This document shows, in pieces, positions 6,668-46,980 of a stretch of 64,000 nt of DNA (position 1 is the first letter of the stretch; every line of letters starts with the position of its first letter). The stretch lies in assembly GCA_029008095.1 (NCBI GenBank), contig JAQXJB010000006.1, forward strand, positions 3,135-67,134, read 5' to 3'. The position numbers were made by a program, and so were the translations under genes. Source of the stretch: Clostridiales bacterium. Lineage in GTDB: Bacteria > Bacillota > Clostridia > Oscillospirales > Oscillospiraceae. Below the pieces are notes generated by a model that was given only the letters and a program-made list of their open reading frames with translations, was not told the DNA's origin and made no database searches.

Positions 6668-6726
6668 TTCAAGCCCCGGGCTGTCGCAGCGAGCAAAAAC
6701 AAAAAGCATTGAAATATGTGAAAAGG

Positions 6727-6763: not shown

Positions 6764-7023
6764 AACTTCTTGTTGTGGATATTATACTGCGCTTATGATA
6801 AAATTTATCACGTTCTATACATCGCTTTTTTCGGCGTAATTTAAGCGTATGACATACGTCCTGTAAAGTATATATCAAATTTCAACACATAAATATTGAA
6901 TATAAAGTGAAACCTTTTGCAGATTTTTTCGTCTGTATATATAGAACTGCAATTTTCATAAGACAGATATAAACCTTGCGAAAGCGGGTTTTGGCACGAT
7001 GAATCTAAAAGGAGCATACATAC

Positions 7024-7917: not shown

Positions 7918-7937
7918 GCAATATTTATTATGAAAAC

Positions 7938-7980
7938 AGTCCCTGCCGTGAAAATCTCACAGCAGGGACTTATCTTTTTT
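7938..7980. terminator. bidirectional terminator between convergent genes
   Basis: AGTCCCTGC - loop - GCAGGGACT, with a T-run on the + side and GTTTTCAT on the - side. Confidence 0.6.
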
Positions 7981-9886
7981 ACAGTCTCATTGCCGTATCA
8001 AAGGCAAGCTGTATGGTTTTCCAGAGAGTGCCGCCCCGGTAGGAGCTGTCTCCGACTATATAGCTTTCGCCAACGCAGCCGGCCAGCTTTTCGGCGGTTT
8101 CCCGGTCGGGACGCACGCCAAGGGAGAGCACCACATTGTCGCAGGGAATGGTACGCTTTCCGTCAGCGCCGGATATGACCGCGCCCTCATCATTCACATC
8201 TTCCAGCTTGACAGAGCATACGAACTTAACGTTCTCCTTAGCCAGAAGCTGCTTGAGGCATATCATGCTGATGGTGATGCCGTCAGTGCCTATCTTCTCC
8301 TCGGGCAGCATATCGATAACGGTGACCTCCCTGCCGCTCCGGGCAAGGGTGAGAGCCATTTCCAGACCGGTGAAGCCCGCGCCCGCTATGACCACACGCT
8401 GTCCCACCTCGGCCTTGCCCAGCTCAACATCGCCCACCCAGACGGTCTTGCCGCTCTTATCCGAGGGCATCGGGATGATGATGGGCTTCGCGCCCACGGC
8501 GACGATGAGCGCGTCGGGAGCCTCCGCCGCGATATTCTCGGGAGTGGCAGCGCAGTTCAGGCGCACTTCAATATTGGGGTCCTCCATAACGCTGCGGATG
8601 GACCAGTCCAGATAATTTCTCATATCCTTTTTGAACTCTGCGGCGCTCGCCATGATAAGCGCGCCGCCCAATCGCTCAGCCTTCTCCATGAGCACGACCC
8701 TATGGCCGCGGGAGGATGCTGTTCTGGCAGCTTCAAGGCCGCCGGGTCCGCCGCCAACCACCAGCAGCTTCTTGGGCTTCAGGCGGGGCGAGCGGTCAAT
8801 ATAGAGAGCCTCGCGTCCAATGAGAGGATTGACCGCGCAGCGTATGGGCAGACGGTTTGAATGGGTGCTGTGGATGCAGCTATTGCAGCGCACGCAGGGA
8901 CGGATGGTATCCGCTCTTCCCCGCCGGGCCTTTTCCACGCAATCGGTATCGGCAAGGATATTGCGCACCATTGCGACCATATCCGTCTGACCGGCGGCAA
9001 CAGCCGCCTCGGCATGCTCAAGGTCGAAGCCGCCTATCACGTTCACGGGGATGTGCAAAGCCTTTTTGAACTCAATGGCAGCATCCAGATTTATGGCGCG
9101 GGGCAGGTACGTTGGCGGGAACATGGGCGGCAGCAATTCATCCACCTCAAGAAGACTTCTGCTGATATGTATGAGATCTATCTTATCCTGAATGAGCTTG
9201 GCAAACTCGATGGTTTCCGGCATCTCCGCACCGCCCGGGAACAGTTCCTCGGCGCTGATACGGTATTCTATCGCCAGCTGATCGCCAACCCGGTCACGGA
9301 TAGCGTCCAGCAGTTCGATCGCAAAGCGGCTGCGGTTGTCAAAGGAGCCGCCGTACTTATCGGTGCGCTTGTTATGCAGGGGCGAAAAGAACATGGAGGG
9401 CACATTGCCGTGGCCGCCGTGTATCATTATCATGTCAAAGCCCGCCTTAACGCAGCGCTCCGCCGCGTCGGCAAAGAGGCGGAATATCTCCTCTATATCT
9501 TCCACGCTTGTTTCATTGACGACCTCATGGGGAGGCGAGAGCATATAGCGGCTATGGACAAGCTCGATGCTTGCCAGCGCATCCTTCAGATGTATCAGAT
9601 CCGTTATCTCGCTCAGATCATGTATAAAGCTATCGTGCCCCGCATTGAGTATACGGCTGCTCCCTCCGGGGCCGAAATAGTCCACGGAGCTGACTCCCAT
9701 AGTGATTATGCCCGCTCCGCTGTTTGCGAGCCCCTTGACATATTCCATGAATTGCACGGAGTTGCGGCTGCCCGGCGCGGTGAGAAAGCATCCGGCAGGC
9801 CCCATCTCGATGCGGTTTTTGCATAGCTTTGTGCCTATTTTAATAGGAGAAAATATCGCGCTGTGGTGGTCAAGCTTAACACTCAT
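7979..9886 (-). CDS. NADH:flavin oxidoreductase, enoate-reductase/2,4-dienoyl-CoA-reductase family (OYE domain + Fe-S + FAD/NAD domain)
   Basis: 635 aa. OYE-like N-terminus (IHGGHGNV), Cys motif CVRCNSC...CAVNP and dinucleotide fold VVGGGPGGLEAA. Confidence 0.85.
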   Translation of the reverse strand: MSVKLDHHSAIFSPIKIGTKLCKNRIEMGPAGCFLTAPGSRNSVQFMEYVKGLANSGAGIITMGVSSVDYFGPGGSSRILNAGHDSFIHDLSEITDLIHLKDALASIELVHSRYMLSPPHEVVNETSVEDIEEIFRLFADAAERCVKAGFDMIMIHGGHGNVPSMFFSPLHNKRTDKYGGSFDNRSRFAIELLDAIRDRVGDQLAIEYRISAEELFPGGAEMPETIEFAKLIQDKIDLIHISRSLLEVDELLPPMFPPTYLPRAINLDAAIEFKKALHIPVNVIGGFDLEHAEAAVAAGQTDMVAMVRNILADTDCVEKARRGRADTIRPCVRCNSCIHSTHSNRLPIRCAVNPLIGREALYIDRSPRLKPKKLLVVGGGPGGLEAARTASSRGHRVVLMEKAERLGGALIMASAAEFKKDMRNYLDWSIRSVMEDPNIEVRLNCAATPENIAAEAPDALIVAVGAKPIIIPMPSDKSGKTVWVGDVELGKAEVGQRVVIAGAGFTGLEMALTLARSGREVTVIDMLPEEKIGTDGITISMICLKQLLAKENVKFVCSVKLEDVNDEGAVISGADGKRTIPCDNVVLSLGVRPDRETAEKLAGCVGESYIVGDSSYRGGTLWKTIQLAFDTAMRL

Positions 9887-9890
9887 TTTA

Positions 9891-10024
9891 ATCCTCCATG
9901 CGGCAGCACCGCAAAATAGTTATTAAAAATCCCCACGCATGGAGGATTTTTGCCATCATCTGCGGTTGCCGCGAAACAGCGAGCAGATGGACTTTTCATG
10001 ATATAGTGTGATTTTTCACACTAT
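9891..10024 (-). repeat. structured intergenic repeat, copy A (5' leader of 7979-9886)
   Basis: Contains ATCCTCCATGCG...CGCATGGAGGAT, CATCTGC...GCAGATG and AGTGTGATTTTTCACACT. GGAGG lies 6 nt from the ATG at 9886. Confidence 0.85.
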
Positions 10025-10050
10025 TCATCCTTCCACTTATCTTCCTTAAG

Positions 10051-10075
10051 GCAGCGGAATACGACTTCCGCTGCT
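10051..10075 (-). terminator. hairpin directly after the 10076-10720 stop (weak terminator candidate)
   Basis: GCAGCGGAA - 6 nt - TTCCGCTGC with a poor U-tract on the minus strand. Confidence 0.3.
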
Positions 10076-10720
10076 TTAGTTTATATGACTCAAAGCCTCA
10101 CGAGCCTTAGCCAGCAGTTCCTCATGCTCCGCCACATATTCCAGATATACATCATCCAGGAACTCCTGCGAATAATCGGCATACTCCGGGGACTCTGCGT
10201 CAAGAGGCTTTACCGGGGAATCATTTGTCGTGCAATAAAGGCCGGGCATGGCGCTGACCGCCACGGCATCCGCAAAATATCCCAGTTCGGAAAAGATATG
10301 ATAATTTTCTTCGTCCAGAATATAGATCATGGTATTCTGGTCATTAAGATGGCTGTAAAGGAGGTTTTCACCATAGCTTTCCATCACGCCTCCGTCGCGG
10401 CTCAGTTCAACGACTTCCACATCCACACGACGGTTTTTACCGGTCTCGGGCAGCAGACTCTCCATCAGCTCCCGTATCTCCTCCGCCCTGGCACTGTCGG
10501 CAGCTCCGTTATGGGCATATACCACAGTCCAATCATAGCTGACAGACGTGACCAAACCTACGGCAGCCATTATCAGCAGCGACAGCAGAAAAACGCCAAT
10601 GATAAAATACCATTTATAGTGAAACCAGAAGGTATTGGTAAGCCAATTCTCTATTTTCTCCATTCTTCCGAGTTCATCATTGGAGTTGTTTACCGGGGAC
10701 ATATCTTTTTCGTTATCCAT
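10076..10720 (-). CDS. hypothetical single-pass membrane protein
   Basis: Start set at the internal ATG (MDNEKDMSP...) 6 nt after the GGAGG of repeat copy B. One TM segment (YFIIGVFLLSLLIMAAVGLV). No family recognised. Confidence 0.6.
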   Translation of the reverse strand: MDNEKDMSPVNNSNDELGRMEKIENWLTNTFWFHYKWYFIIGVFLLSLLIMAAVGLVTSVSYDWTVVYAHNGAADSARAEEIRELMESLLPETGKNRRVDVEVVELSRDGGVMESYGENLLYSHLNDQNTMIYILDEENYHIFSELGYFADAVAVSAMPGLYCTTNDSPVKPLDAESPEYADYSQEFLDDVYLEYVAEHEELLAKAREALSHIN

Positions 10721-10724
10721 ATTA

Positions 10725-10859
10725 ATCCTCCATGCGGCAGCACCGCACAAATAGTCATTATAAATCTTCCTCCGCATGGAGGATTTTCGCCATCATCGCC
10801 GGTTGCCCAACGGGCGAGGCGATGGGCTTTTTATAATATAGTGTGATTTTTCACACTAT
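10725..10859 (-). repeat. structured intergenic repeat, copy B
   Basis: Full unit. GGAGG lies 6 nt from the ATG at 10720. Confidence 0.85.
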
Positions 10860-29674: not shown

Positions 29675-30661
29675 TCAGAACATTTCCTTGCTCATGCGGG
29701 CGATCTGTCTGGAGACCTCCTCATAGACGCCGGGATAAGTGCTGCCGGGTCCGCCGGCAGTACAGCAGGGAATGAAATATTTGTTTCCGCAGGCGCGGCA
29801 CATCTTCTCAACATAGGCTCCGACCTTCTCAGGGGTCCAGTCATGGGTATCCACAACACCGTTGTTGATGCCGCCCATGAAGGATATCTGTCCGCCGTAC
29901 TTCTCGATCAGCTCTGGAATATTGTTGGTGTCCAGACAACCCTGGAAAATATCGATGCCCATTTCTATCATATACGGCACAAGTGTGGCGGCGTATGAGT
30001 CGCTGTGGTGAACGATGACCTCAACGCCATGCTCCTTATAGTAACCGTATATCTTCTTATAGGCGGGAAGGATAAATTCCTCAAACATCTCCGGAGACAG
30101 GAAGGTAGACTTCTGGCTGCCCCAGTCGTCATGATGCAGTATAGCGTCAGGATGCTGATTTTCGCAGATGACGCGGGCATATTCCAGTTCCCAGTCGGTT
30201 ATGTAGTCGATAAGCTCATGCATAGCCTCGGGCTCAAGGTAGAAGTTGATGAGGCAGTCATCCATGCCCATGAGGTAATGGAGCTGCTCGAAAACGCCGG
30301 GAGCGACCATTGCTGTGGCAAAATACTCGCTGCGGTCAACAGCGTCTACCGCGGGCTGAAACTCCGCCCATTCCTCCTTGCTGAACTCAAGATTAGGAGC
30401 ATGGACAGTCTCGCGCCACTTGGTGATGTTCTTGACGACCTTGTGCTCCTCGTCATGCACAGGGAAGGGGCCGGGAGTGTTCTCCTTGAACTGGATGGTC
30501 ACGCCCCAGGAATTCACTACGGTGTTGCCGGTACGAACGCCGAAGTTTGCCTTCATATAGGGGTTGCCCATGATGAGTACAAAGGGCTCGTACTGGTCTA
30601 CAAATCTGTCGGGCCTGCCGCCCTTGATTGTCTCGATAAGGTTCTGGCGTTTGGTAAGCAT
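29675..30661 (-). CDS. uroporphyrinogen decarboxylase (URO-D) family protein, methyltransferase-like
   Basis: 328 aa. Length and overall sequence resemble URO-D/MtaA-like proteins, from memory. Confidence 0.7.
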   Translation of the reverse strand: MLTKRQNLIETIKGGRPDRFVDQYEPFVLIMGNPYMKANFGVRTGNTVVNSWGVTIQFKENTPGPFPVHDEEHKVVKNITKWRETVHAPNLEFSKEEWAEFQPAVDAVDRSEYFATAMVAPGVFEQLHYLMGMDDCLINFYLEPEAMHELIDYITDWELEYARVICENQHPDAILHHDDWGSQKSTFLSPEMFEEFILPAYKKIYGYYKEHGVEVIVHHSDSYAATLVPYMIEMGIDIFQGCLDTNNIPELIEKYGGQISFMGGINNGVVDTHDWTPEKVGAYVEKMCRACGNKYFIPCCTAGGPGSTYPGVYEEVSRQIARMSKEMF

Positions 30662-30702
30662 GTCTGTTCCACCTTTCTTTTTTCGGGCTTTATTATTTTG
30701 TT

Positions 30703-31359
30703 TTATTGCATGTCATAACCTGTTTTCGGCTCTATCCCCGCAGCCTGAGCGATGCGCATTACGCCCACATCGGCGATGGTGACAGTGCTCTCCACATGGA
30801 TGAAATCCGTGGCGCTCCTGTCAAAGAGGATATTGGCCTGAGCCTCGAATTCGTCGTCCGCGTCCCAGAAAATGACGCGCATTGGTATGCACTCAAAGGC
30901 TTTCAGCTCATAACCAACGTCACCCACATTCAGTCTCACTCCGCCCATCGCCTCGCAGCCCCTGGCCAGGGCTTCAGGTCTGCCGGAGAACATACGGGCG
31001 AAGGGTTCAAGATTTCCTTTCTTAAAGGCCGGACCAAATACAGCGGCATCCTTCAGGTCGGCAAAGGCAACCCATTCGCCGCTGAGTGAGGCATCCGGCT
31101 TGGCGTAAGCAAAAAGGGTGAAAATATTAAATATTTCTCCTATACTCAATGCAGCCGTTGGCTCGTCCAAATCGCGGATCATTCCCGTTTTCAGGCTTAC
31201 GGCGCAGCGGCGGCCAAAGTGAGTTATCTTTAAATCGCCGTTTTCTATGGCTATCTCCGGCAAACGCCGGCACAGCTCCGCAATGTCCATCCGCAGAAAC
31301 CGCCGCTGCCATTCCTCCACCTGGAGTTCATAATTGGAGGGGCGCTTTTTGGTTTCCAT
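30703..31359 (-). CDS. DUF3786-like protein
   Basis: 218 aa. Resembles the DUF3786 family, from memory. Adjacent to the URO-D-family gene. Confidence 0.55.
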   Translation of the reverse strand: METKKRPSNYELQVEEWQRRFLRMDIAELCRRLPEIAIENGDLKITHFGRRCAVSLKTGMIRDLDEPTAALSIGEIFNIFTLFAYAKPDASLSGEWVAFADLKDAAVFGPAFKKGNLEPFARMFSGRPEALARGCEAMGGVRLNVGDVGYELKAFECIPMRVIFWDADDEFEAQANILFDRSATDFIHVESTVTIADVGVMRIAQAAGIEPKTGYDMQ

Positions 31360-34786: not shown

Positions 34787-35806
34787 TTATCTCTTGATCC
34801 AATCCAAATCCTTACGCGCCTGGCCGAAAGCCTCGCCGCCTTCGGGAACAGCCCAACCCATCGCGGGAGGCTCCTTGCCCTCAGCCTTCATCTTTTCCAT
34901 CATTTCCTGCATAGCCTTCATCTTCTCGGCCTGGATAGCGTCACGCTCAGCCTGAGTGAGGGTGTAGTTCTCAATGGTCTCGTTCAGGCCGCGGAGCTGG
35001 GGAGCCCAGGTGCTGGGATCGGGATTGGGCATGGCAATGATACGGCCTGTCTCAATGGCTTCCTTGAGTATTTCTGCGAGCTCAATGGGATCCTGACCGG
35101 TAGCATGTACGGAACGGAGGTGCATCATGGTGCCCTCAGAAACATGATAGCCGGTGTTTCTCAAATTTGCGGGACGATACTTCTCGGCGTTGCCGATGTT
35201 GGAGTTGATATTTGCGGGGCAGAGAACAGTTGCGCCTGCGCCATATTTTCTCAGAGTATCGGCATAGGAATACATGAGGTTATTAACAGCGGCCTTGGCA
35301 GCGCCATAAGGACCGCAGCCGGAATTGCCCATAAACGCGCCCATAGAGGAGGTGGTGGCGACATGGAACTCAGTCTTGCCGGCATAAGCCTTGATCATTC
35401 TGGGAACGAAGATAAGCAGGCCGTTTACAACGTGGTTGAAGCAGACGCCTACGACCCAGTCAAAATCGTCAAAGGTAGAAGCCTCAACGGGACCGAAGGA
35501 GTTAACGCCCGCGGTCTGGATGAGGAGGTGGGGAGGACCACCGAAGGTCTCTTCAACCTTATCGGCAGCAGCGGTATACTCTTCGCGGTTGGTCAGATCT
35601 ACCTTGATGGCAAGAACATCGCTCTCGGGGCAGCCGGCATAAGCCACGATTTCCTTCACGGCATTTTCAAGAGCATCCTCACGAACGTCCGCGATAGCGA
35701 CCTTCATGCCGCTCTTGGCAAAAACCTTAGCCTGGCCGAGACCAGCGCCGGACGCGCCGCCGGATATGAAACAAATCTTACCTGCAAAATCTTTCACTTT
35801 GTGCAC
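34787..35806 (-). CDS. short-chain dehydrogenase/reductase (SDR) with extended C-terminus
   Basis: 339 aa with ISGGASGAGLG and YGAAK. The GTG start at 35806 is only 1 nt from the SD, so the GTG at 35797 is an equally plausible start. Confidence 0.8.
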   Translation of the reverse strand: MHKVKDFAGKICFISGGASGAGLGQAKVFAKSGMKVAIADVREDALENAVKEIVAYAGCPESDVLAIKVDLTNREEYTAAADKVEETFGGPPHLLIQTAGVNSFGPVEASTFDDFDWVVGVCFNHVVNGLLIFVPRMIKAYAGKTEFHVATTSSMGAFMGNSGCGPYGAAKAAVNNLMYSYADTLRKYGAGATVLCPANINSNIGNAEKYRPANLRNTGYHVSEGTMMHLRSVHATGQDPIELAEILKEAIETGRIIAMPNPDPSTWAPQLRGLNETIENYTLTQAERDAIQAEKMKAMQEMMEKMKAEGKEPPAMGWAVPEGGEAFGQARKDLDWIKR

Positions 35807-36279: not shown

Positions 36280-36945
36280 ATGACAGACGCAAAGGATATG
36301 ACCTTCACTCTCGAAACCGCTCACGTTAAGGTTTCCGAGATGATCGGTGCTATCCCCACAACGCTCTCCGAATACCGCTGCCCGCTGTGCGGCAAGATAT
36401 TCGGAAGCTATGCAGACATCAAGCAGCACTACGCAGTAGAGCATGTCGGCGCTATCCCCCCCACTACCGTTGTACTTAACCTCAATGGCAAGAACTGCGA
36501 GGTCCTCATCGAACCCCACTGGACTCTCAAGCGCACTCTGCAGTTCCGCCTCGGCCTCACCGGCGCAAAGCACATGTGCGACAAGGGCGTCTGCGGCTCC
36601 TGCACCGTTATCATGGACGGCCGCGCAGTCCTCTCCTGCCAGATGCTCGCCGTAGAATGCGAGGGACACGCGATCCAGACCGTAGAAGGCATTGCCGCCG
36701 ATCCCAAGTGGAAGCCCCTGGTGGATGCTTACTGCCGCTGGGACGCTATGCAGTGCGGTTACTGCACCCCCGGCTTCCTGGTATCCGCCAAGGCTCTCCT
36801 GGACAAGAATCCCAACCCCACGGAACAGGAGATCAAGGAAGCTCTCTCGGGCAACATCTGCATCTGCGGTACTTATCCCCGCCACGCCCAGGCTATCCTG
36901 GAGGCGGTAGAAAGAATGTCGGAAGGAGCGGTAACAAATGGCTGA
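36280..36945 (+). CDS. molybdenum hydroxylase [2Fe-2S] small subunit with N-terminal C2H2 zinc-finger extension
   Basis: 221 aa with CDKGVCGSCTV and QCGYCTPGF cluster motifs. N-terminal YRCPLCGKIFGSYADIKQHYAVEH. Confidence 0.85.
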   Translation: MTDAKDMTFTLETAHVKVSEMIGAIPTTLSEYRCPLCGKIFGSYADIKQHYAVEHVGAIPPTTVVLNLNGKNCEVLIEPHWTLKRTLQFRLGLTGAKHMCDKGVCGSCTVIMDGRAVLSCQMLAVECEGHAIQTVEGIAADPKWKPLVDAYCRWDAMQCGYCTPGFLVSAKALLDKNPNPTEQEIKEALSGNICICGTYPRHAQAILEAVERMSEGAVTNG

Positions 36946-39283
36946 TATAGTAGGCGTAAACGGTCAAAGAGAAGATTTCCGAGTAGTCGGCAAGCACAAC
37001 CTTCCCGGCAAGCTTTCCTATGCTCTGGCTACCGGTATCGCTAAGTTCGGTATGGACTATGTTCTGCCCAACATGCTTCATGCCAAGTTTCTTCGCTGCC
37101 CCTATGCCAACGCGAAGATAGTCAAGCTGGACACCACCAAGGCCCGCGCTCTCCCCGGCGTTGTTGACATCGTCACCTGGGAAGACGAGGACATCAAGAA
37201 GCTCGGCCAGAACCCCTTCGGACCTCCCTCCCGTCCTTATCTGGATAATTGGGGCGATCAGGAAGGCGCCGAGGTCGGCTGCATCGTTGTCGCAGAGGAC
37301 GAGGATATCTGCGAAGAGGCTCTTCGTCTGCTGGATATCGAATGGGAAGTTCTCGGCCACGTTGTTGACACTCTTAAGGGCCGCGAGGACGATGCTCCCG
37401 TAGTCCGCCAGGTTCAGGAGCCCAAGGACATGTTCTCTCCCCCTCCCGCAAAGGAGAAGAAGGGCAACGTTTCCTACGCCGTCACCACTCAGGGCGACAT
37501 TGAGAAGGGCTTTGCCGAGGCTGACCACATCATCGAGTATAAGCTGATGCTCCCCGCATTCGCATCTCATATGCCCAATCCCCCCGCATCCGTCGCATGG
37601 TGGGAGAAGAACCCCTACCACGGCGAAGAGCCCGACCTTCACATCGAAGGCGCTGTCCAGAGACGTGAGAACATCGGCCGGATGTACGGCGTTTCCAACG
37701 AAAAGACCATCCAGGAAGGCCTCTTCCAGGGCGGTAAGTACTGCGACTGGGGTATGCGTAAGTCTCAGGAGATCACGCCCCTGCTGGCTAAGCGCACCGG
37801 CCGCCCCGTTCGCTGCGCAAACACTCGTGAGGAAACCTTCGACTTCCTCATGAACGAGCGCTTCATGTACCTCAAGGTTGGCTTTACCAAGGACGGTCTC
37901 ATAACCGCTATCGACGACTTCTCCGTTGCTGACAACGGCGTTTACGGTTCTTCCTCCTTCGGTGCCGCCAATGACCAGGGTTATGGCCCCTACTACACCT
38001 TCAAGTGCCCCAACATCCGTCAGCAGATGGACGTTGTCGACACCAACCGCGGCAAGATGTACCTCTCCGGCCAGCACTGCCCCTTTAACTGGGACTCCGG
38101 CACAATGGCCATCTACCTCATCGCGGAAAAGCTGGGCAAGGATCCCATCGATATTGCTCTACTGAACGTTCACGGTCCCGATTCTCAGGAAGACAACACC
38201 GTCACCCCCAGCTTCGCCGCCTGCATTGAGGCCGGTAAGAAGATGATGAACTGGAATTGGCACCCTGCCGGTACCAAAAAGCTTGAAGACGGCCGCATGC
38301 ACGGCGCCAGCTTCCGCTATCAGATTTGCCCCCGTCACGCATTCTCCGGCTATGACTGCAAGCTTGAGCTTAGAAACGGCGTAGTTCACCTGCCCACTCA
38401 GGGTCCCTGCACCGGTATCTTCGCAGTCGAGTGCAACGCAATGGTCGTTGCCGAAGAGCTTGGTCTGGAATACGAGGACATCGCCATCGATTTCGACTTC
38501 CGTGAGAAGTTCACCCCCGTCGGCGGCGGTTCTGACGGCTCCACCGCTTCCTCCTGGGCAATGAAGGAGTGCGCCAACATTCTGAAGCAGAAGATTCTCG
38601 AGTCCGCTATCAAGCAGGCAGACAATCCGCCTCCTCCGGGCATGTTCGGCTTTGGTGGTCCCAAGAAGGAAAATCCTCTCAAGGGTCACAAGCCCGAAGA
38701 TCTGGATATTATCAACGGCAACGTATGCCTGAAGGATGATCCCAGCCAGGGTATCCCCCTCGCGGAGGCCACCAGCGAGAATATCTTTGCCACTTACTCC
38801 GGCCGTCCCCCCGCGGCTATCTGGACTCTCGGCATGGGCAAGAAACTCGATACCATGAACACCGTTTACTGCGAAGTCGCTGTCGACACCGATACCGGCG
38901 AGGTCGAAATTCTTCGCTTCGGCGCTGTTGCCGACCCCGGTAAGGTTCTGCGTCCCACCTCTCTTGAAAGCCAGATCGATCAGGTTCTGTACTTCTCTCA
39001 GGGCTGCCAGCTCCTCGAAGAGTTCGTCTACGATGAAAAGACCGGCGTCCGCCTGAACAACAACATGATCGATTACAAGAAGCCTACCACGCTGGACGTT
39101 CCTCATATCGACAAGCAGTATCTTGAGACCCGTGCCGGTAACGCAGCTTACGGCGCAAGCGGTATCAGCCACTCTATGGCTAACACCCACGCTGTTATCA
39201 TCGCTATCCACAACGCTATCGGCGTTTGGGTAGATCCCCCTGCCACCCCGGACAAGATCCTCAAAGCTTTAGGAAAGGCATAA
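36938..39283 (+). CDS. xanthine dehydrogenase/aldehyde oxidase-family molybdopterin-binding large subunit
   Basis: 781 aa. 8-nt overlap with the small subunit. N-terminal a/b-hammerhead-like region and a C-terminal ...IIAIHNAIG segment typical of the family. Confidence 0.85.
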   Translation: MADIVGVNGQREDFRVVGKHNLPGKLSYALATGIAKFGMDYVLPNMLHAKFLRCPYANAKIVKLDTTKARALPGVVDIVTWEDEDIKKLGQNPFGPPSRPYLDNWGDQEGAEVGCIVVAEDEDICEEALRLLDIEWEVLGHVVDTLKGREDDAPVVRQVQEPKDMFSPPPAKEKKGNVSYAVTTQGDIEKGFAEADHIIEYKLMLPAFASHMPNPPASVAWWEKNPYHGEEPDLHIEGAVQRRENIGRMYGVSNEKTIQEGLFQGGKYCDWGMRKSQEITPLLAKRTGRPVRCANTREETFDFLMNERFMYLKVGFTKDGLITAIDDFSVADNGVYGSSSFGAANDQGYGPYYTFKCPNIRQQMDVVDTNRGKMYLSGQHCPFNWDSGTMAIYLIAEKLGKDPIDIALLNVHGPDSQEDNTVTPSFAACIEAGKKMMNWNWHPAGTKKLEDGRMHGASFRYQICPRHAFSGYDCKLELRNGVVHLPTQGPCTGIFAVECNAMVVAEELGLEYEDIAIDFDFREKFTPVGGGSDGSTASSWAMKECANILKQKILESAIKQADNPPPPGMFGFGGPKKENPLKGHKPEDLDIINGNVCLKDDPSQGIPLAEATSENIFATYSGRPPAAIWTLGMGKKLDTMNTVYCEVAVDTDTGEVEILRFGAVADPGKVLRPTSLESQIDQVLYFSQGCQLLEEFVYDEKTGVRLNNNMIDYKKPTTLDVPHIDKQYLETRAGNAAYGASGISHSMANTHAVIIAIHNAIGVWVDPPATPDKILKALGKA

Positions 39284-39292
39284 GGTGATAGA

Positions 39293-41632
39293 ATGAGACC
39301 TTTTAATCATACAAATGCCAAGACCCTGGAAGAGGCTTCAAAGGCTCTTGAACAGGGCAAGGCTGCTCTTATCGCCGGAGGTACTGATCTTCTCGGCACT
39401 CTGAAGGACAACATCCTTCGTGAATACCCCGAAAACGTTGTTAACATCAAGACCATACCCGGTCTGGATTACATCAAGGAAGAGGACGGCATGCTCAAGA
39501 TCGGCGCTCTGACCCGTCTGGCAGACATCGCCGAGTGCGCCGCCATCAAAGAGAAGTACACCGCACTGGCTCAGGCAGCCAAGGCCGTTGCTTCTCCCCA
39601 TCTGCGCGATATGGGTACCATCGCCGGCAATATCTCTCAGTTTCCCCGCTGCTGGTACTACCGCAAGGCCGAGAACCGCTTCGACTGTCTGCGTAAGGGC
39701 GGCACCGAGTGCTTCGCCCATACCGGCCAAAACCGTTTCCATTCCATCATGGGCGGCGCAAAGGTTCGCGCCACCTCCTGCCAGCAGGAGTGTCCTGCCG
39801 GCACCAACATCCCCGCTTACAATGACCGCATCCGTAAGGGTGATTGGGACGGCGCAGCCGAGATCATCATGCAGGTCAATCCCATGCCCATGATCACCGG
39901 CCGTGTCTGCGCCCACACCTGCCAGCAGCACTGCAACCGCTGCACCAGCGAATGTGACAGCGTTTACATCAACGGCGTAGAGCGCACTCTGGGCGACTAC
40001 ATACTCGACCACGCAGATAAGTTCTATAAGGCCCCCGAGGTCGAGACCGGCAAGTCTGTCGCCATCGTCGGCGGCGGCCCCGCTGGCCTTTCCGCAGCCT
40101 TCTATCTTCGCAAGGCAGGCAACAAGGTCACAGTTTACGACGTCAAGGACGAGGCCGGCGGCATGCTCATGTACGCCATCCCCGCTTACCGTCTGCCCAA
40201 GGATGTTGTCCGCAAGCTTATCAACGCTCTCAAGAGCATGGGCATTGAGTTCAAGACCGGCGTTCGCATCGGTGTCGACGTTGAGCCTTTGGAGCTTGAA
40301 AAGCAGTATGACAGCGTTTGCTACTCCACCGGTACCTGGAAGCGTCCCGTTGCCGGTCTGGCCGGTGAAGAGCTGACCCACTTCGGTCTGGACTTCCTGG
40401 TTGGCGTTGAGAAGTGGATGGAAGGCAAGATCGGTTCCGAGGTCATCGTAACCGGCGGCGGCAACGTTGCTATGGACGTTGCTATCACCGCAAAGCGTCT
40501 CGGCGCCAAGAAGGTCACTATGGCCTGCCTTGAGACCCGCGAGACCATGCCCGCCAGCAAGGAAGAGATCGCCCGTGCGGAAGAGGAAGGCGTTATCATC
40601 ATGCCCTCCTGGGGCCTCTCCAGAGTCGTTGAAGAGAACGGCATAGTCAAGGGTCTCGAGCTCAAGCGCTGCGTATCCACCCGCGATGCTGACGGCCGCT
40701 TCAACCCCAAGTACGACGAGAGTGAAAAGACCGTCATTGCCGCTGAGAACATCCTCATGGCTATCGGTCAGACGGTTGACCTCTCCTTCCTCGATGAGAA
40801 ATATCAGGTTCAGCTCAGCGCCCGCGGTCTGATAGATATTGACAATGAGGCTATGACCTCCCGTCCCGGTATCTATGCAGCCGGCGACGCTACCACCGGC
40901 CCGGGTACCGTTATCCGCGCCATTGCCAACGGTCACAAGGCTGCCAACGGTATGAACAAGTACCTCGGCGTTGCCGTTGCATCCGCTGACAATAAGCTTT
41001 ATCTCACCAAGCCCGCCGATGACGCTCCTTCCCGCACCAAGCAGATGAAGCTGCGCGAGGTCGCTCTTGAGGAGCGTTCCCTCAATGTTGAGGACGCTTT
41101 CACTGCTACTCCGGAAGAGGCCATTGAGGAAGCCAAGCGCTGCCTGAGCTGCAGCTGCTACGCCGTTCATCCCTCTGACGTAGCTCCCGCTCTCATCGCT
41201 CTTGACGCCAAGGTAATCACCAATAAGCGTGAGCTGGATATCAACGAATTCTTCACCGTTAAGGTTCCCTCCAGCACCGTTCTGATGCCCGGCGAGATCA
41301 TCACCGAAATTCAGATTCCCACCCCCAAGCCCGGCGTAAAGACTGCCTTCATAAAGTTTGCATACCGCAAGTCCATCGACTTCCCCGTAGTAAACTGCGC
41401 AGTTGCCGTTGGCGGCGAATCTCCCCGCGTATGTCTTAACGCCATTGCTCCCGTACCTTACCGTGCCCGCAAGGCTGAAGAGCTGCTCAGGGGCCAGGAA
41501 ATCACCGAAGCTCTGGCAGAAGCCGCAGGCGAGGCTGCCGTTATCGGCGCTCAGCCCGACGAAGACAACCGCTTCAAGGTTCAGATCTCCAAGGTCATGG
41601 TAAAGAGAGTCCTCCTCTCCACCCTGAAGTAA
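39293..41632 (+). CDS. Mo-hydroxylase FAD-binding subunit interrupted by a GltD-like NAD(P)H:FAD/Fe-S module
   Basis: 779 aa. CoxM/XdhB-like residues 1-156 and 623-779. The insert carries CPAGTNIP...GRVCAHTCQQHC and VAIVGGGPAGLSAA. Confidence 0.8.
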   Translation: MRPFNHTNAKTLEEASKALEQGKAALIAGGTDLLGTLKDNILREYPENVVNIKTIPGLDYIKEEDGMLKIGALTRLADIAECAAIKEKYTALAQAAKAVASPHLRDMGTIAGNISQFPRCWYYRKAENRFDCLRKGGTECFAHTGQNRFHSIMGGAKVRATSCQQECPAGTNIPAYNDRIRKGDWDGAAEIIMQVNPMPMITGRVCAHTCQQHCNRCTSECDSVYINGVERTLGDYILDHADKFYKAPEVETGKSVAIVGGGPAGLSAAFYLRKAGNKVTVYDVKDEAGGMLMYAIPAYRLPKDVVRKLINALKSMGIEFKTGVRIGVDVEPLELEKQYDSVCYSTGTWKRPVAGLAGEELTHFGLDFLVGVEKWMEGKIGSEVIVTGGGNVAMDVAITAKRLGAKKVTMACLETRETMPASKEEIARAEEEGVIIMPSWGLSRVVEENGIVKGLELKRCVSTRDADGRFNPKYDESEKTVIAAENILMAIGQTVDLSFLDEKYQVQLSARGLIDIDNEAMTSRPGIYAAGDATTGPGTVIRAIANGHKAANGMNKYLGVAVASADNKLYLTKPADDAPSRTKQMKLREVALEERSLNVEDAFTATPEEAIEEAKRCLSCSCYAVHPSDVAPALIALDAKVITNKRELDINEFFTVKVPSSTVLMPGEIITEIQIPTPKPGVKTAFIKFAYRKSIDFPVVNCAVAVGGESPRVCLNAIAPVPYRARKAEELLRGQEITEALAEAAGEAAVIGAQPDEDNRFKVQISKVMVKRVLLSTLK

Positions 41633-41654
41633 GCTGCAAACAACCAACAAATTA

Positions 41655-41706: not shown

Positions 41707-43257
41707 TCAGAATTCCATTTCCTTCAGATCGTCCGCGACCTCTACATTGAATGGCAGAAGGTCAAGTATCTGGGTTTGCAGGTCTATGCCGGGAGCCACC
41801 TCGGTAAGGACAAGTCCGTTTGGCCCAAGACGGAATACGCATCGCTCGGTAACATAAAGTATCTCCTGCTTATTGGCATATGCGTTCTTCACGCTGAAGC
41901 TGAAGCTGCCCACATTCTCTACGAATTTGCGTATCTGTCCCTCTTTGGTGATGGTGACGGTCTTGCCGTCAAAGCTGCCGTCAATGCCTTTACTGGTAAA
42001 GGTAAAGCAGAACACAACCTTCTTAGTGGTCTGGGAAATATTCGCGAAGCCGCCGATTCCGCTGAGCTTGCCCTTGGTATAGTGCCCGTTTACGTTGCCG
42101 TATCCATCCACCTCGAGTGCGCCGATAAAGCATAGGTCAAGGCCGCCGCCTTCATAGAAATCAAACTGCCGCGCCATATCCATCATGGAATCGGGACCGA
42201 TGGCTACGCCGAAGGCCTGTCCACCCAATGGCAGTCCGCCCGTATGGCCGGACTCAACGCTGAGGTGCACATCCTCCAGCATGTTGCGCTCAAGAACGGC
42301 AGCGGCGACCAGCTCAGGTATGCCGATACCGATATTCACGATCTGATCCTTCTCTATCTCATGAACCGCGCGAGCTGCAATAGCCTTATGGAGCTCGTTA
42401 CGCTTGGAGGTCGCGCCGATAACCTCGCTTATTTCTTCCTTGCAGGCCTTGAGGATGTTTCCCGTGGGAACATACTTGCCGCAAATATAGTCATAAAATC
42501 CATCCACATTGGTGAGTTGCTGCTGGTGCGGGCAGACGACCACCGCGTCCACAAGAGCCGCCGGCACATTCACAGTTCTGGGCGGCATATGGTTATTGAC
42601 TATGCGTGCCACCTGTACGATGACCTTGCCTCCGTTGCGGTGGGTCGCCTGTGCGACGCTGAGAGCGTCGATGGAGGCGCACTCATTTTCAAAGGTGATG
42701 TTTCCCCTCTCGTCGGCATAGCTCGCCTTAAGCAAGGCAATATCCACCCGTGGGATATCGTAAAGCAATCCCAGCTCACCTTTTTCCTCAGCAAGATGGA
42801 CAAGCTCCAGCTTGGAACGCTCATTGAGCTGATACTGATGACCAAGGCGGGGGTCTACAAAGAGGTTCAGACCTATCTTGGAAAACAGCGAGGATGCGCC
42901 GCAGGCCGATGCGCGTATCATATGGGACATGATTCCGCCCGGGAGGTTGTACCCTTCTATCTTATTATCCATTATGGCCTGGCAGGTGTTTGTCAAGCTG
43001 CCGAAGAAGCCGATAACAGCTCTATCCACCGCTCCCTCGCATATATAGCCTTCCACATCGCTGTTCTTCTTCCAATCGCTGAAGCTGAAGGAGCTGTAAA
43101 TCGAAAGGTTCTTCGGGTGTCCTGTTTTTCTAAAGCGGTAGGTTATACCCTTATTCAGGTCTACCGGGGAGGCGCAGGCGGCAAAAGCGTTGACCCATAT
43201 GGTGTCTCCGTCCTTTATAAGATCAATGGCTTCCTCGAGGGTGACAACTTTGCTCAT
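41707..43257 (-). CDS. family I acyl-CoA:carboxylate CoA-transferase (fused alpha/beta, YdiF/Pct-like)
   Basis: Start at the internal ATG (MSKVVTLEEAIDLIKDGDTIW...) 6 nt after the GGAGG of repeat copy D. Motifs VESGHTGG and SGIGGF. Confidence 0.85.
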   Translation of the reverse strand: MSKVVTLEEAIDLIKDGDTIWVNAFAACASPVDLNKGITYRFRKTGHPKNLSIYSSFSFSDWKKNSDVEGYICEGAVDRAVIGFFGSLTNTCQAIMDNKIEGYNLPGGIMSHMIRASACGASSLFSKIGLNLFVDPRLGHQYQLNERSKLELVHLAEEKGELGLLYDIPRVDIALLKASYADERGNITFENECASIDALSVAQATHRNGGKVIVQVARIVNNHMPPRTVNVPAALVDAVVVCPHQQQLTNVDGFYDYICGKYVPTGNILKACKEEISEVIGATSKRNELHKAIAARAVHEIEKDQIVNIGIGIPELVAAAVLERNMLEDVHLSVESGHTGGLPLGGQAFGVAIGPDSMMDMARQFDFYEGGGLDLCFIGALEVDGYGNVNGHYTKGKLSGIGGFANISQTTKKVVFCFTFTSKGIDGSFDGKTVTITKEGQIRKFVENVGSFSFSVKNAYANKQEILYVTERCVFRLGPNGLVLTEVAPGIDLQTQILDLLPFNVEVADDLKEMEF

Positions 43258-43261
43258 GTAA

Positions 43262-43389
43262 TTCCTCCATTCCGCCGCTGTAAGCGGCATAAATAGAAAT
43301 GAAACGCTCCCCCGGCGAAATGGGGGATTATTGCCATCATCTGCAGTCGCCCCGGAGCGGCGAGCGGATGGGCTTTTCATCATATATAG
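43262..43389 (-). repeat. structured intergenic repeat, divergent copy D
   Basis: Arms CCCCCATTTCGCC / GGCGGAATGGAGG and hairpin 2 CCCATCCGC...GCAGATGATGG. No hairpin 3. Confidence 0.7.
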
Positions 43390-43391: not shown

Positions 43392-44753
43392 TTACTGCGC
43401 GTAAATGGCTTCATTGCGGGCATACGCTTTCTTTCTTATAGCGAAGTAACAAACGTAATGGGCCGCGGCAGTTATAGTCCAAGTTATGGGATAGGAAATA
43501 TACAGCATAAACAGGGTCGGCACCGCGGCAAAAACAGTGTATATCCATATTATTCTGAAAGCGCAGGCGCCGATAAGGGAAACTATAGTTGGCAGCATGG
43601 AATAGCCAAGTCCGCGGTTGACGCCGCCCATCATATTCATAAGGCCGGCGGTAAAATATATGGGGCAGAGCACCAGCAGACGGTATACGCCGTGCTCGAT
43701 CACCTCGGCCTCTCCGGAATAGATGCTTATAAGGGGCTGGCGGAATATCGTGGCGATGAGCCCCACCGCAGCACCCATAAGAGTGGTGATTATGGTGCAG
43801 TAAAGCACGACCTTTTCGGCGCGCTTATAGTCACGGGCCCCCATGTTCTGGCTTATCGCGGAGGTGGCGGTCTGGTTGAAGGAGTCAACCGTGCAGAACA
43901 TAAAGCCGTCAATGCTTGCGGCGGCTGTATTGCCGGATATAACAGCCGAACCAAAGGTATTGATAGAGGACTGAATTATAACATTGGAGAAAGAGAACAC
44001 ACAGCCCTGCAATCCGGCGGGGATGCCCAGACGGAGGAGCTGGAACAGTTTATCCTTATATATTCTCAGTTTCTTTACTTCCAGGCGGTAAAAGCCCTCG
44101 CTTTTCATAAGGCAACGTACTACCAGCACCATGGAAAGTGCCTGAGAGAGTGTGGTCGCTATGGCAACGCCGGCAACAGCCAGCTTACACACAATGACGA
44201 AAAAGAGATTGAGCAGCACATTCAAAATGCCGGCGGCCATTAGAAAATACATGGGACGTCGGGTATCTCCAACGGCGCGAAGAATAGCCGCGCCGTAGTT
44301 ATAAACAGCAGAAACGGGCGCTCCGACGAACACGATCCGCATATAGAGCACAGCGCCGTCCAGAATATCCTCCGGTGTACCCATCATGGTAAGCAGCGGG
44401 CGGGCAAAGGCCACGCCGATGACCCCAATGAGCGTACCGCCAACAACGGCCAGCACCATTGTGGTATGTACGGTCTCACTGATGCCGCGCTCGTCCTTCG
44501 CACCGAAATAACGGGCAAGGGTTACATTTGTGCCTATCGCAAGTCCGACAAGCAGATTGATGATCAGATTTATTATAGCAGTTGTCGCGCCCACCTGAGC
44601 CAGCGCGATGCTTCCCGCAAACTTTCCGACGACCACCAGGTCGGCAGCGTTAAAAAGAAGCTGCAAAAGACCCGAGAGCATGACAGGTATCGAGAACATG
44701 AACAGCTTCGGCAGCAGAGAGCCGGTGCTCATGTCTATTTCATGAGACTTCAT
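43392..44753 (-). CDS. MATE-family efflux transporter
   Basis: 453 aa, polytopic, with a MATE-like N-terminus (LLPKLFMFSIPVMLSGLLQLLFNAADLVVVG). Confidence 0.9.
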   Translation of the reverse strand: MKSHEIDMSTGSLLPKLFMFSIPVMLSGLLQLLFNAADLVVVGKFAGSIALAQVGATTAIINLIINLLVGLAIGTNVTLARYFGAKDERGISETVHTTMVLAVVGGTLIGVIGVAFARPLLTMMGTPEDILDGAVLYMRIVFVGAPVSAVYNYGAAILRAVGDTRRPMYFLMAAGILNVLLNLFFVIVCKLAVAGVAIATTLSQALSMVLVVRCLMKSEGFYRLEVKKLRIYKDKLFQLLRLGIPAGLQGCVFSFSNVIIQSSINTFGSAVISGNTAAASIDGFMFCTVDSFNQTATSAISQNMGARDYKRAEKVVLYCTIITTLMGAAVGLIATIFRQPLISIYSGEAEVIEHGVYRLLVLCPIYFTAGLMNMMGGVNRGLGYSMLPTIVSLIGACAFRIIWIYTVFAAVPTLFMLYISYPITWTITAAAHYVCYFAIRKKAYARNEAIYAQ

Positions 44754-45876: not shown

Positions 45877-46980
45877 ATGGGCAGATATGACGATCTGGTA
45901 TTTAAGATCCCTAAGGAATTCCACAACTGGTACGGCTTCGCCTCTCCCCGCGGCTTCTTCCGCGGCACCACTATGATGGAGAAGGCAAAGGTCTACATGG
46001 ACTTCACCTCCGTTACCAAGCCCCTCCCTATGGAGGTTCCCCACACTCACCACTGTGCTGACGAGTATCTCGTTTTCACCGGCGCCGACATGAACAACTT
46101 CTTTGAGTTCGACGCCGAGGTCGACGTATGGATAGGAGAGGATCCCAACAACCTGGAGATGTACACCCTCACCCAGCCCACAATCATCCGTGTGCCCCCC
46201 AAGATGTACCACTGTCCCGTACACTTCCGTGTAATCAACAAGCCTATCGTTTTCTCCGCCGTTTATCTGGACGGCGACTGGTCAAAGATAAACCGCAATC
46301 TGGACGAGAATGGCCGCGAATTCTTCACCTATGACGGCGCGGGCGTTCGCCGCTGCGTGCGCGACACCAGCAAGGAGTGCATATACTGCGGAAGCTGCTT
46401 CTCCGAGGCAATGAAGGCCAGAGAGGATGCAAAGCCTGAAGAAAAGGCTGACGATACTCCCAATACCAACCTCCTCGCTCCCTACTATGAGATGGCTGAA
46501 AAGACCAAGGGTCAGCGTAAGTACGCAAAATATGTTTATGCCTATCAGCCCGAGGAGCACAGCGATGACCGCTTCCTCAGCCCTCGCGCCGGATTCCGTG
46601 GCGTAAGCGAGATGGAGGGTTCCCGCCTGTGCTACCTCTATAACATTGTGCAGAAGGCCTGCGTATTCGGCGATACTCACATGCACCACGCGGTTGAGGA
46701 ATACATATTCTTCACTGGCGCCGACATCACCAATTTCTTTGATTTTGACGCGGAGATAGAGATTCAGATCGGTGAAACTCCCGATGATATGGATACCTAT
46801 ACCATCACCGAGCCCACCGTGGTGCGCATTCCCGCCGGAATGTGGCATGGCCCCATCAACTTCAAGCGCATCGGTGCGCCCATCAACTTCGAGCCCTTCT
46901 ATCCCTCCGGAAACTACGGCAAGGTAATTTGCAAGGATGGCCAGTATATCTATGAAGGCACCGATCTCCCCAAGAAATAA
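45877..46980 (+). CDS. hypothetical bicupin protein with central Cys cluster
   Basis: 367 aa. Internal duplication (aa 55-127 and 266-339), each half with an HxHH...E motif. C-x7-C-x2-C-x2-C linker. Confidence 0.6.
   Translation: MGRYDDLVFKIPKEFHNWYGFASPRGFFRGTTMMEKAKVYMDFTSVTKPLPMEVPHTHHCADEYLVFTGADMNNFFEFDAEVDVWIGEDPNNLEMYTLTQPTIIRVPPKMYHCPVHFRVINKPIVFSAVYLDGDWSKINRNLDENGREFFTYDGAGVRRCVRDTSKECIYCGSCFSEAMKAREDAKPEEKADDTPNTNLLAPYYEMAEKTKGQRKYAKYVYAYQPEEHSDDRFLSPRAGFRGVSEMEGSRLCYLYNIVQKACVFGDTHMHHAVEEYIFFTGADITNFFDFDAEIEIQIGETPDDMDTYTITEPTVVRIPAGMWHGPINFKRIGAPINFEPFYPSGNYGKVICKDGQYIYEGTDLPKK

Follow-up and report, generated by a model that had tools for sequence, protein, structure and literature searches.

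Why should the flavin adenine dinucleotide (FAD) subunit of a molybdenum hydroxylase carry, in the middle of its own FAD-binding domain, what looks like the small subunit of a glutamate synthase? The question is raised by a 779-residue open reading frame (ORF) in a 64,000-nucleotide stretch of DNA from a Clostridiales bacterium (Oscillospiraceae; GenBank assembly GCA_029008095.1, contig JAQXJB010000006.1, positions 3,135 to 67,134 of the forward strand), hereafter the window. The ORF closes a compact operon of three genes, which encodes a molybdoenzyme of the xanthine dehydrogenase (XDH) family. A first-pass annotation, made from the sequence without database searches, had read it as an FAD subunit interrupted by a GltD-like NAD(P)H module. 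The reading we arrive at, to which we give a probability of about two in three, is that a permuted cassette sits in the [4Fe-4S] loop of a PaoB/HcrB-type FAD subunit and would act as a wire from nicotinamide adenine dinucleotide (NAD(H)) to molybdenum, most likely for an NADH-driven reduction or dehydroxylation.

The split itself was confirmed. The motifs quoted in the first-pass annotation were present where it had placed them, window positions 39761-41152 corresponding to residues 157-620 of the ORF. Domain scans with hidden Markov models from Pfam returned FAD_binding_5 (residues 4-115, plus a second stretch), a partial Fer4_20 (161-238), Pyr_redox_2 (255-547), and CO_deh_flav_C (687-776), in that order, and no complete, non-permuted Fe-S motif. 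Deleting residues 160-619 in silico produced a single FAD_binding_5 match (profile 3-169 of 170, 134.8 bits). The protein is a CoxM/XdhB-family FAD subunit, with FAD_binding_5 followed by CO_deh_flav_C as in the XDH and carbon monoxide dehydrogenase (CODH) family, in which FAD_binding_5 is natively split by a 462-residue GltD/NfnL-like module (residues 160-621).

The host is not the ordinary CoxM-type subunit that the annotation had supposed. With the insert removed, it aligned end to end with PaoB (5g5g_B, residues 1-314 to 1-311), with the medium subunit of the Methylobacillus aldehyde oxidase (5y6q_B), and with HcrB (1rm6_B), and the closest structural relatives of its two halves were XDH-family FAD subunits with an extra Cys loop. 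PaoB carries a [4Fe-4S] cluster in this loop. The beta subunit HcrB has a [4Fe-4S] loop as well, to which effect the title of Unciuleac et al. 2004 is also cited (PMC11760930). Residues C120, C132, C140, and C622 of the window protein aligned with the four loop Cys of PaoB, and C120, C140, and C622 with Cys of HcrB; all four were invariant in 79 of 79 family members. C622, to which the annotation had given no role, lies opposite the Cys of ‘EAC-IATHPSD’ in PaoB and of ‘RC-YATYHGD’ in HcrB. By these alignments the host is of the PaoB/HcrB subtype, with a predicted [4Fe-4S] loop of its own formed by C120, C132, C140, and C622.

The insertion point could be located precisely by comparison with FAD subunits that lack the insert. 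Five such proteins in our representative library (P0171, P0174, P0188, P0195, and P0256; 313-326 residues) are 52-57% identical to both halves of the host. Their loop reads ‘HSIFGG-SVSGG-C-FAVHPSD’, and that of the window protein ‘HSIMGG-AKVRATS-[insert]-C-YAVHPSD’, so that C622 again faces a Cys (‘GGC-FAVHPSD’); as aligned, the window junction is ‘HSIMGGAKVRATS[insert]C-S-C-YAVHPSD’. Given the match of C120, C132, C140, and C622 to the PaoB loop Cys, the insertion separates ligands three and four of the host cluster, and a single residue, the Ser of C620-S-C622, stands between the last Cys of the insert and the fourth ligand. In HcrB (1RM6) and PaoB (5G5G), whose full-length alignment with the host halves takes in the extra Cys loop beside the FAD, this loop is uninterrupted at ~40 residues and the enzyme depends on a separate redox partner, whereas the window protein has a 462-residue NAD(H)-FAD-2x[4Fe-4S] module directly before the fourth Cys.

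The inserted module belongs to the GltD/NfnB/dihydropyrimidine dehydrogenase (DPD) fold family, combining a Fer4_20 domain with the FAD and NAD(P)H Rossmann folds of Pyr_redox_2. Its match to NCBIfam PRK12771 scored 420.7 bits, below the curated cut-off of 516; the ends of the profile (positions 1-45 and 517-566) are missing because the module is embedded in its host. In the PDB, residues 162-623 matched residues 103-569 of 9bov_A and 103-568 of 8oh5_C. The top Foldseek hits of the structural model were 9bov_A, 8oh5_C, and 9n5u_A, with a probability of 1.00 to NfnI-L, NfnB, GltD, and DPD. Like the N-terminal domain of GltD, NfnB, and DPD, the module has seven Cys with an acidic or amide ligand and two nested Rossmann folds; in those proteins, however, the lead-in helix and all four motif Cys lie in one stretch, whereas in the window protein C1 and C2 follow the Rossmann folds.

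The annotation had proposed that the first Fe-S motif of the module is divided, its second half opening the insert and its first half, with the usual lead-in, closing it, and this was borne out. A contiguous C-x2-C-x4-C-x3-CP motif is absent from the N-terminal side of the insert, which has only C-x3-CP. The Fer4_20 match begins at profile position 30, with C163 as C3 and C167 as C4, and C1-x2-C2 is placed past the Rossmann folds. In contrast, Escherichia coli GltD matches Fer4_20 in one piece (profile 2-112), with C1-x2-C2-x4-C3-x3-C4P near its N terminus. When residues 597-620 (LNVED...EEAKRC617LSC620) were moved in front of residue 159, the canonical spacing was reproduced and the match extended to profile positions 11-109, the score rising from 63.7 to 89.3-90.3 bits, a gain of ~26 bits. 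Three scrambled lead-ins gave 69.3, 64.0, and 64.7 bits and a reversed one 63.3 bits. Set against these controls, the gain shows that the C-terminal segment is homologous to the canonical N-terminal lead-in. The permutation relative to canonical GltD is therefore real: C-x3-CP opens the insert and EEAKRC-x2-C closes it.

The first-pass annotation had looked at the permutation only within this fusion, where it would bring the insert termini together at the host loop, but it is no device of the fusion. The same permuted order recurs in the best PDB matches to the insert, namely 9bov_A (Csac NfnA), 9n5u_A (T. sibiricus NfnA), and 8oh5_C (S. ovata StnC), the StnC and NfnA structures having been solved by cryo-EM: ‘PC-x3-CP’ precedes the Rossmann folds and ‘EA..EA.RCL.C’ comes behind them. 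In E. coli YgfK, ‘EAARCLEC’ likewise lies past the Rossmann folds. Free-standing proteins have it too: P0190 starts with ...IPTC16SQAC20P and has EEAKRCLNC past the Rossmann folds, and P0267 (485 residues) starts with ...PPC18QAGC22P and ends with ...EADRCFQC, with nothing downstream. In a representative search, dozens of proteins of 485-1500 residues matched the query over approximately residues 160 to 622, and these shared boundaries in so many proteins indicate that the cassette is an old, reused unit. The window protein follows the order of this permuted subfamily, to which NCBIfam PRK12771/PRK12814 and the NfnL-like domain of StnC/NfnA belong, throughout (C3-x3-C4P, Rossmann folds, linker, EAxRC1-x2-C2). 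Judged by these comparisons, the permutation is the standard topology of a large subfamily and was not created by fusion with a Mo-enzyme subunit. In the searchable part of the literature, we found no description of GltD, NfnB, or DPD as circularly permuted, and a full-text search of that same part returned 0 matches for a fusion of an FAD subunit with glutamate synthase.

Hosts other than the Mo-enzyme subunit are also on record. StnC carries the module as an insertion too, in a NuoG/HydA-like subunit whose residues 101 and 566 flank it (PMC10482914). P0229 (820 residues) and P0240 (782 residues) have the permuted cassette from approximately residue 158 onward, behind an N-terminal dinucleotide-binding motif of the FAD_oxidored/GIDA type, which suggests that it is embedded in further flavoprotein hosts. 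In P0135 (1730 residues), a single chain combines the Mo large subunit with the split FAD subunit.

Could the closing ‘EEAKRCLSC’ instead be the remnant of a downstream ferredoxin-like domain, as in YgfK/PRK12814 proteins, with other residues completing the distal cluster? An RCxxC motif followed by a two-cluster ferredoxin domain does occur in YgfK, P0190, P0211, and P0187. Upstream of Cys3, YgfK also retains a Cys in the place of canonical Cys2, its Fer4_20 match starting at profile position 25. Yet P0267 stops right after this motif, has only 5 Cys and a Lys in its N-terminal Fe-S domain, and acquires a full Fer4_20 match (profile 5-111, 98.7 bits) once de-permuted. In the window protein, the transplant gain depended on the order of the segment, and its homologues offer no further invariant ligand candidates. 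We consider a remnant highly improbable.

The ligands were examined in two alignments, one of 56 close homologues and one of 79 sequences spanning 50-100% identity. The residues invariant in the Fe-S segments were C120, C132, C140, C163, C167, C206, C210, C214, C617, C620, and C622, together with E230. C217 and C221, considered as added cluster ligands, were ruled out, as both vary across homologues. Exactly 11 Cys and E230 being invariant, three clusters with four ligands each are predicted. In T. maritima NfnB, the distal cluster is held by C39/C42/C47/C100 and the proximal one by C51/C90/C96/E117 (PMC7596348), and in Csac NfnA the proximal A7 cluster was experimentally assigned to C108, C147, C151, and K170 (PMC11829005); of the cluster ligands of the permuted type, only the proximal ones are named in the main texts of the Stn and Nfn papers. 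Aligned to 9bov_A, the A7 ligands correspond to C167, C206, C210, and E230, which we predict to hold the proximal cluster. The distal cluster is assigned to C163, C214, C617, and C620, because C617 and C620 are the only invariant pair remaining; it would be rebuilt across the insert junction. C622 is predicted to complete the host loop cluster with C120, C132, and C140. The annotation had proposed a single cluster rebuilt across the junction from C163, C167, C617, and C620. The ligand count calls for such a cluster, with C214 as its fourth member, but C167 belongs to the proximal one.

An AlphaFold2 model of the fused subunit, built from the 56-sequence alignment, reached a predicted local distance difference test (pLDDT) score of 82.6 and a predicted TM-score of 0.80. 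The junction segments scored 80-91 and the host Cys loop 54-70, the latter values being low in the way expected when a cluster loop is modeled without its cluster.

From these assignments a path for electrons can be proposed. NAD(H) would pass electrons to the FAD of the insert and from there to the proximal [4Fe-4S] cluster (C167, C206, C210, E230), the distal one (C163, C214, C617, C620), and the loop cluster (C120, C132, C140, C622); the host FAD, the two [2Fe-2S] clusters of the small subunit, and the Mo-pterin of the large subunit would follow. The N and C termini of the cassette would meet at its own distal cluster, and the ready-made cassette would have been spliced into the host loop between the third and the fourth Cys, leaving C620 and C622, one residue apart, to serve neighboring clusters. 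The host [4Fe-4S] loop lies at the surface beside the host FAD; in 4-hydroxybenzoyl-CoA reductase, it takes part in an inverted, reductive electron flow. The FAD subunit would have a built-in port for pyridine nucleotides. The coupling to pyridine nucleotides and the reductive role that the annotation had hinted at are plausible.

Which nucleotide and which direction does this path serve? In alignments to 9bov_A and 8oh5_C, C412-L-E414 occupies the place of the YRR motif of NfnB, StnC, and NfnA, a motif that holds the 2'-phosphate of NADPH (PMC7596348). E414 was invariant in 79 of 79 members, and the closest free-standing relatives have the same CLE motif. An invariant Glu in place of YRR points to a preference for NADH. 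The physiological direction is probably reductive by analogy, with NADH driving the reduction or dehydroxylation of an aromatic or heterocyclic substrate. In 4-hydroxybenzoyl-CoA reductase (4-HBCR), electrons flow inward to Mo, as stated by a title on its inverted electron flow cited in PMC11760930. Uxd, a dehydroxylase, is the only studied enzyme with such a fused subunit (PMC12658268). Dehydroxylation by Ucd and Uxd is stimulated by NAD(P)H (PMC11760930, PMC12658268), which Ucd lysates need (PMC11760930), and XdhD-YgfM reduces urate (PMC12507026).

The same wiring might also run the other way, with the substrate oxidized at Mo and electrons delivered through the host FAD and the three [4Fe-4S] clusters to NAD(P)+. 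Most characterized XDH-family members are hydroxylases, and GltD/NfnL-type modules work reversibly in the Nfn and Stn transhydrogenases (PMC10482914). However, NAD+-reducing enzymes of the XDH type use the host FAD itself for this step, for which no added module is needed, the type with a [4Fe-4S] loop includes 4-HBCR with its inverted flow, and Uxd, alone characterized among enzymes with this fused subunit, is a reductive dehydroxylase (PMC12658268). In addition, the general-base Glu used for hydroxylation is a His in the clade of the window enzyme. Overall, we regard the oxidative direction as unlikely.

Several points nevertheless weigh against an NADH-driven reductive enzyme with three clusters in series. 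GltD-type modules being reversible and most XDH-family enzymes being hydroxylases, the oxidative direction is possible. The catalytic Glu is retained in HcrA, a reductive enzyme, and the His substitution alone is thus no sign of reductive chemistry. That the Cys sets converge on three sites is predicted from ligand bookkeeping, and cluster occupancy, cluster distances, flavin content, and nucleotide specificity are predictions. The substrate clue offered by the neighboring genes rarely recurs: relatives of the flanking short-chain dehydrogenase/reductase (SDR) and coenzyme A (CoA)-transferase genes were present in 11 and 8 of 82 loci, respectively. The domain order, the permutation, the insertion point, and the conservation of ligands and operon are observed directly; the NADH preference, the direction, and the substrate class are inferred.

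The annotation had also hinted at a reaction of the bifurcating type. The module would then be a flavin-based bifurcating or confurcating site at which NAD(P)H, paired with ferredoxin or another second donor or acceptor, drives a low-potential reduction. Its invariant proximal ligand, E230, is the Glu of bifurcating NfnL/NfnB, and the non-bifurcating StnC and NfnA have a Lys at this position (PMC12018979, PMC7596348); moreover, HydABC genes elsewhere in the window show a ferredoxin-linked metabolism. Bifurcation at NfnL nevertheless requires a second exit, which in NfnSL is provided by the [2Fe-2S] cluster of NfnS and the a-FAD, and neither the three-gene operon nor its conserved neighborhood has an NfnS-like [2Fe-2S]/FAD gene or domain. 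The single cluster chain is the only visible path from the insert FAD, and the conserved Arg R300 occurs in bifurcating and non-bifurcating relatives alike and so does not discriminate (PMC10482914). With no second electron exit encoded in the operon, bifurcation is very unlikely.

The architecture was widespread, as a search for homologues with the same split showed. All 120 of the 120 best protein clusters had it (61-100% identity, ~780 residues, same Pfam set), and at 50% identity the full-length architecture formed ~30 clusters. A pattern scan of GTDB species genomes recovered 211 relatives in more than 200 genomes, mainly Oscillospiraceae metagenome-assembled genomes from termite gut, rumen, and digesters. 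Sporobacter termitidis has two loci, and further hosts include Papillibacter, Acetobacterium tundrae, Desulfosporosinus, Sporomusa, Synergistaceae, Coriobacteriales, Enterocloster, and Lachnospiraceae. The small-large-fused gene order was kept in ~72 of 82 loci. Nothing was found in favor of the split being an artefact of assembly or annotation, or a fusion in decay. The ORF is intact and has a ribosome-binding site. Its junctions recur unchanged, with invariant ligands, across 79 sequences; the many assemblies they come from include those of isolates (Sporobacter termitidis DSM 10068, Acetobacterium tundrae, and Sporomusa sp. KB1, for example). Given this conservation, such an explanation is refuted and practically without chance.

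Whether the family is already well annotated has a divided answer. The names of the best 120 clusters are generic, for example ‘FAD binding domain-containing protein’ and ‘NADPH-dependent glutamate synthase beta chain’, and the JGI label is ‘glutamate synthase beta subunit-like oxidoreductase/CO/xanthine dehydrogenase FAD-binding subunit’. At the domain level, in contrast, the architecture is already in print for UxdC (PMC12658268). UxdC belongs to uxdFOC, the urolithin 10-dehydroxylase of Enterocloster spp. (2025), whose operon has the same order of 2Fe-2S, Mo, and coenzyme-binding subunits and a long C subunit with XDH-FAD, 4Fe-4S, and FAD/NAD(P) domains; the window operon shows this order and these domains (PMC12658268). 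An AlphaFold 3 prediction of UxdC shown there places two FADs at opposite ends. Within the part of the report available, nothing is said for UxdC of where in the [4Fe-4S] loop the insert lies, of a third cluster, or of the permutation (PMC12658268). Loci with the same architecture in Enterocloster and Lachnospiraceae encode proteins 51-55% identical to the window protein. What was known is thus the architecture at the domain level; what is added here is the insertion into the PaoB/HcrB loop, the C620-x-C622 junction, the predicted three-cluster wire, and the NADH-type motif.

The other known systems resemble the window protein in part. StnC and the Bfu-type NfnA proteins (8OH5, 9BOV, 9N5U) are the best sequence and fold matches to the insert and have the same permuted order, and in both groups a further Cys stands two residues past the last Cys of the module (RCLECGC in StnC/NfnA, RCLSCSC in the window protein). 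Their host, however, is NuoG/Fdh-like, whereas that of the window protein is a Mo-hydroxylase FAD subunit with no NuoG-like domain. They use Lys (K170) as the fourth proximal ligand and YRR for NADPH, where the window protein has E230, the Glu ligand also found in NfnB (PMC7596348), and CLE. They also feed a HydBC-type bifurcating module, and no HydBC-like gene is present in the window operon; the window protein thus lacks the Lys ligand, the NuoG/Fdh-like host, and the HydBC-like partners of the Bfu type. Two further candidates for a known equivalent were ruled out: UcdC (ucdCFO) is a short FAD subunit without an Fe-S loop, and E. coli YgfK, considered as the unfused partner of YgfM-XdhD, is a DPD-like reductase in its own right.

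Examining the partner subunits revealed two catalytic clades behind one type of fused subunit. Fused subunits at least 57% identical to that of the window were paired with large subunits 60-88% identical to the window's, whereas those of 50-56% identity (Enterocloster, Lachnospiraceae, Acetobacterium, and others) were paired with large subunits of only 24-36% identity. The junctions and ligands of the fused subunit were identical in both clades, which suggests that the insertion happened once and that the fused subunit was later recruited to different catalytic partners. All 59 of the 59 large subunits compared in the window clade have His where enzymes of the xanthine oxidase family have their catalytic general base, a Glu. 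In the window enzyme this is His745 (window 39170-39172, motif ‘GASGISHS’), which aligns opposite the Glu of Qor, CoxL, and HcrA. The other clade keeps the Glu in 19 of 20 (‘GxGE’). The small subunit of the window clade has an extension of ~60 residues with the motif C34-x2-C37-x12-H50-x4-H55 and a weak Pfam zf-C2H2 match at residues 32-55. This C-x2-C-x12-H-x4-H extension recurred in 47 related loci, and the other clade lacked it. The window enzyme therefore differs from the Enterocloster type in the clade of its large subunit, in the His for the catalytic Glu, and in the C2H2-like extension, and, with Enterocloster and Lachnospiraceae locus proteins standing in for UxdO, orthology of its large subunit to UxdO appears unlikely.

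In the Enterocloster/Lachnospiraceae-type loci (L081, positions 2108-13877; L076, L078, L080, and L082), a TetR gene precedes the small, large, and fused subunit genes, and further genes follow. In loci of the L081 type, these encode an MFS transporter, an AMP-dependent (CoA) ligase, a CoA-transferase, and a 4HBT thioesterase. This gene order resembles the pathway of an aryl-CoA reductase such as 4-HBCR, hinting at acyl-CoA substrates there.

Taken together, the window enzyme is a member of an uncharacterized catalytic clade of Uxd-like, NAD(P)H-linked XDH-family enzymes that uses a known permuted NfnL-like cassette. A broader proposal can be made, tentatively and with doubts on our part: that the permuted unit is a general plug-in port for the Fe-S loops of unrelated hosts, and that the window clade performs an undescribed NADH-dependent chemistry. 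The hosts would be the NuoG-like StnC/NfnA, the PaoB/HcrB loop, and further flavoproteins, of which P0229 and P0240 are examples, and termini meeting at the distal cluster would permit splicing into unrelated Fe-S loops. If this is true, a Mo enzyme with His for Glu and a C2H2-like small subunit reduces or dehydroxylates a plant-derived aromatic or heterocycle in Oscillospiraceae of the termite gut and rumen.

The fused subunit would offer anaerobic molybdenum enzymes a route for taking electrons directly from NADH and not from ferredoxin. Its hosts are anaerobes of gut, rumen, termite, and digester, and at least one such enzyme makes a bioactive urolithin; the His-for-Glu clade is large and may bear on the turnover of polyphenols or heterocycles in guts. 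The twelve invariant ligands and the NADH-type motif are concrete targets for mutagenesis, and recognizing the cassette as one reusable unit would help annotation, where present labels read ‘glutamate synthase beta chain’ or ‘FAD binding domain-containing protein’.

The features of the operon are listed in Table 1. The small- and large-subunit genes overlap by 8 nucleotides, and the ATG of the fused subunit lies 9 nucleotides past the stop codon of the large subunit, with the ribosome-binding site AAGGTGA 6 nucleotides upstream. The FAD subunit thus adjoins genes for a 2x[2Fe-2S] small subunit and a molybdopterin large subunit, as in the XDH/CODH family. Against all NCBIfam equivalogs, the large subunit scored far below the cut-offs. 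An antisense ORF of 770 residues (39338-41650, minus strand) was set aside, since all homology is carried by the plus-strand ORF.

Table 1. Features of the molybdoenzyme operon and of its fused subunit (window coordinates; residue numbers are those of the fused subunit unless stated otherwise).
Feature	Coordinates	Strand	Evidence
Small subunit, 221 residues, two [2Fe-2S] domains and ~60-residue N-terminal extension	36280..36945	+	Pfam Fer2_2/Fer2_3/Fer2
C2H2 zinc-finger-like motif CPLCGKIFGSYADIKQHYAVEH, small-subunit residues 34-55	36379-36444	+	Weak Pfam zf-C2H2 match
Molybdopterin large catalytic subunit, 781 residues	36938..39283	+	Pfam Ald_Xan_dh_C, MoCoBD_1, MoCoBD_2
Fused FAD / Fe-S / NAD(H) subunit, 779 residues, whole gene including stop codon	39293..41632	+	
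Host N-terminal half, residues 1-159, first part of FAD_binding_5	39293..39769	+	Aligns with PaoB, 5y6q_B, and HcrB residues 1-155
Predicted host [4Fe-4S] loop, first three ligands C120, C132, C140	39650..39712	+	Aligned to loop Cys of PaoB (5g5g_B)
Inserted permuted GltD/NfnL-like module, residues 160-621	39770..41155	+	NCBIfam PRK12771 (159-624 to profile 46-516); 9bov_A, 8oh5_C; Foldseek
Fe-S domain of insert, residues 161-238	39773..40006	+	Fer4_20, profile 30-109 of 113 only
FAD Rossmann fold with embedded NAD(P)H Rossmann fold, residues 255-547	40055..40933	+	Pyr_redox_2, profile 2-291 of 291
Displaced GltD lead-in helix with Cys1/Cys2, residues 604-620, ...TPEEAIEEAKRC617LSC620	41102..41152	+	Transplant test; invariant Cys
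Host C-terminal half, residues 622-779: C622, rest of FAD_binding_5, CO_deh_flav_C	41156..41629	+	Pfam CO_deh_flav_C 687-776

Directly upstream of the operon, and divergent from it, lies the gene of a 339-residue SDR (34787-35806, minus strand); directly downstream, and convergent, is that of a family-I CoA-transferase (41707-43383, minus strand). These two neighbors may possibly hint at an acyl-CoA or a hydroxylated ring as the substrate. Next follows a MATE efflux transporter (43392-44753, minus strand), of which locus L005 has a 75% identical copy; in Enterocloster, co-induction of MATE transporters with the ucd dehydroxylase operon has been reported (PMC11760930).

Farther upstream, a HydC-HydB-HydA set (24844-28977, plus strand) encodes a thioredoxin-like 2Fe-2S protein, a NuoF-like protein, and an [FeFe]-hydrogenase. 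These are the subunits of an electron-bifurcating hydrogenase and mark a strict anaerobe with ferredoxin-linked metabolism. A URO-D-family protein with an MtaA-like methyltransferase fold is encoded beside a DUF3786 protein (29675-31359, minus strand). This pairing often accompanies corrinoid-dependent methyl transfer or O-demethylation, and it would be compatible with a metabolism of methoxy-aromatic compounds as in Sporobacter. Finally, a 367-residue ORF without a Pfam match (45877-46980, plus strand) looks internally duplicated, each half having the pattern H-H...EY-[LI]-[VF]FTGAD...NFF-[ED]FDAE; L005 has a copy at 88% identity close to its operon, and L018 a partial match at 41%.

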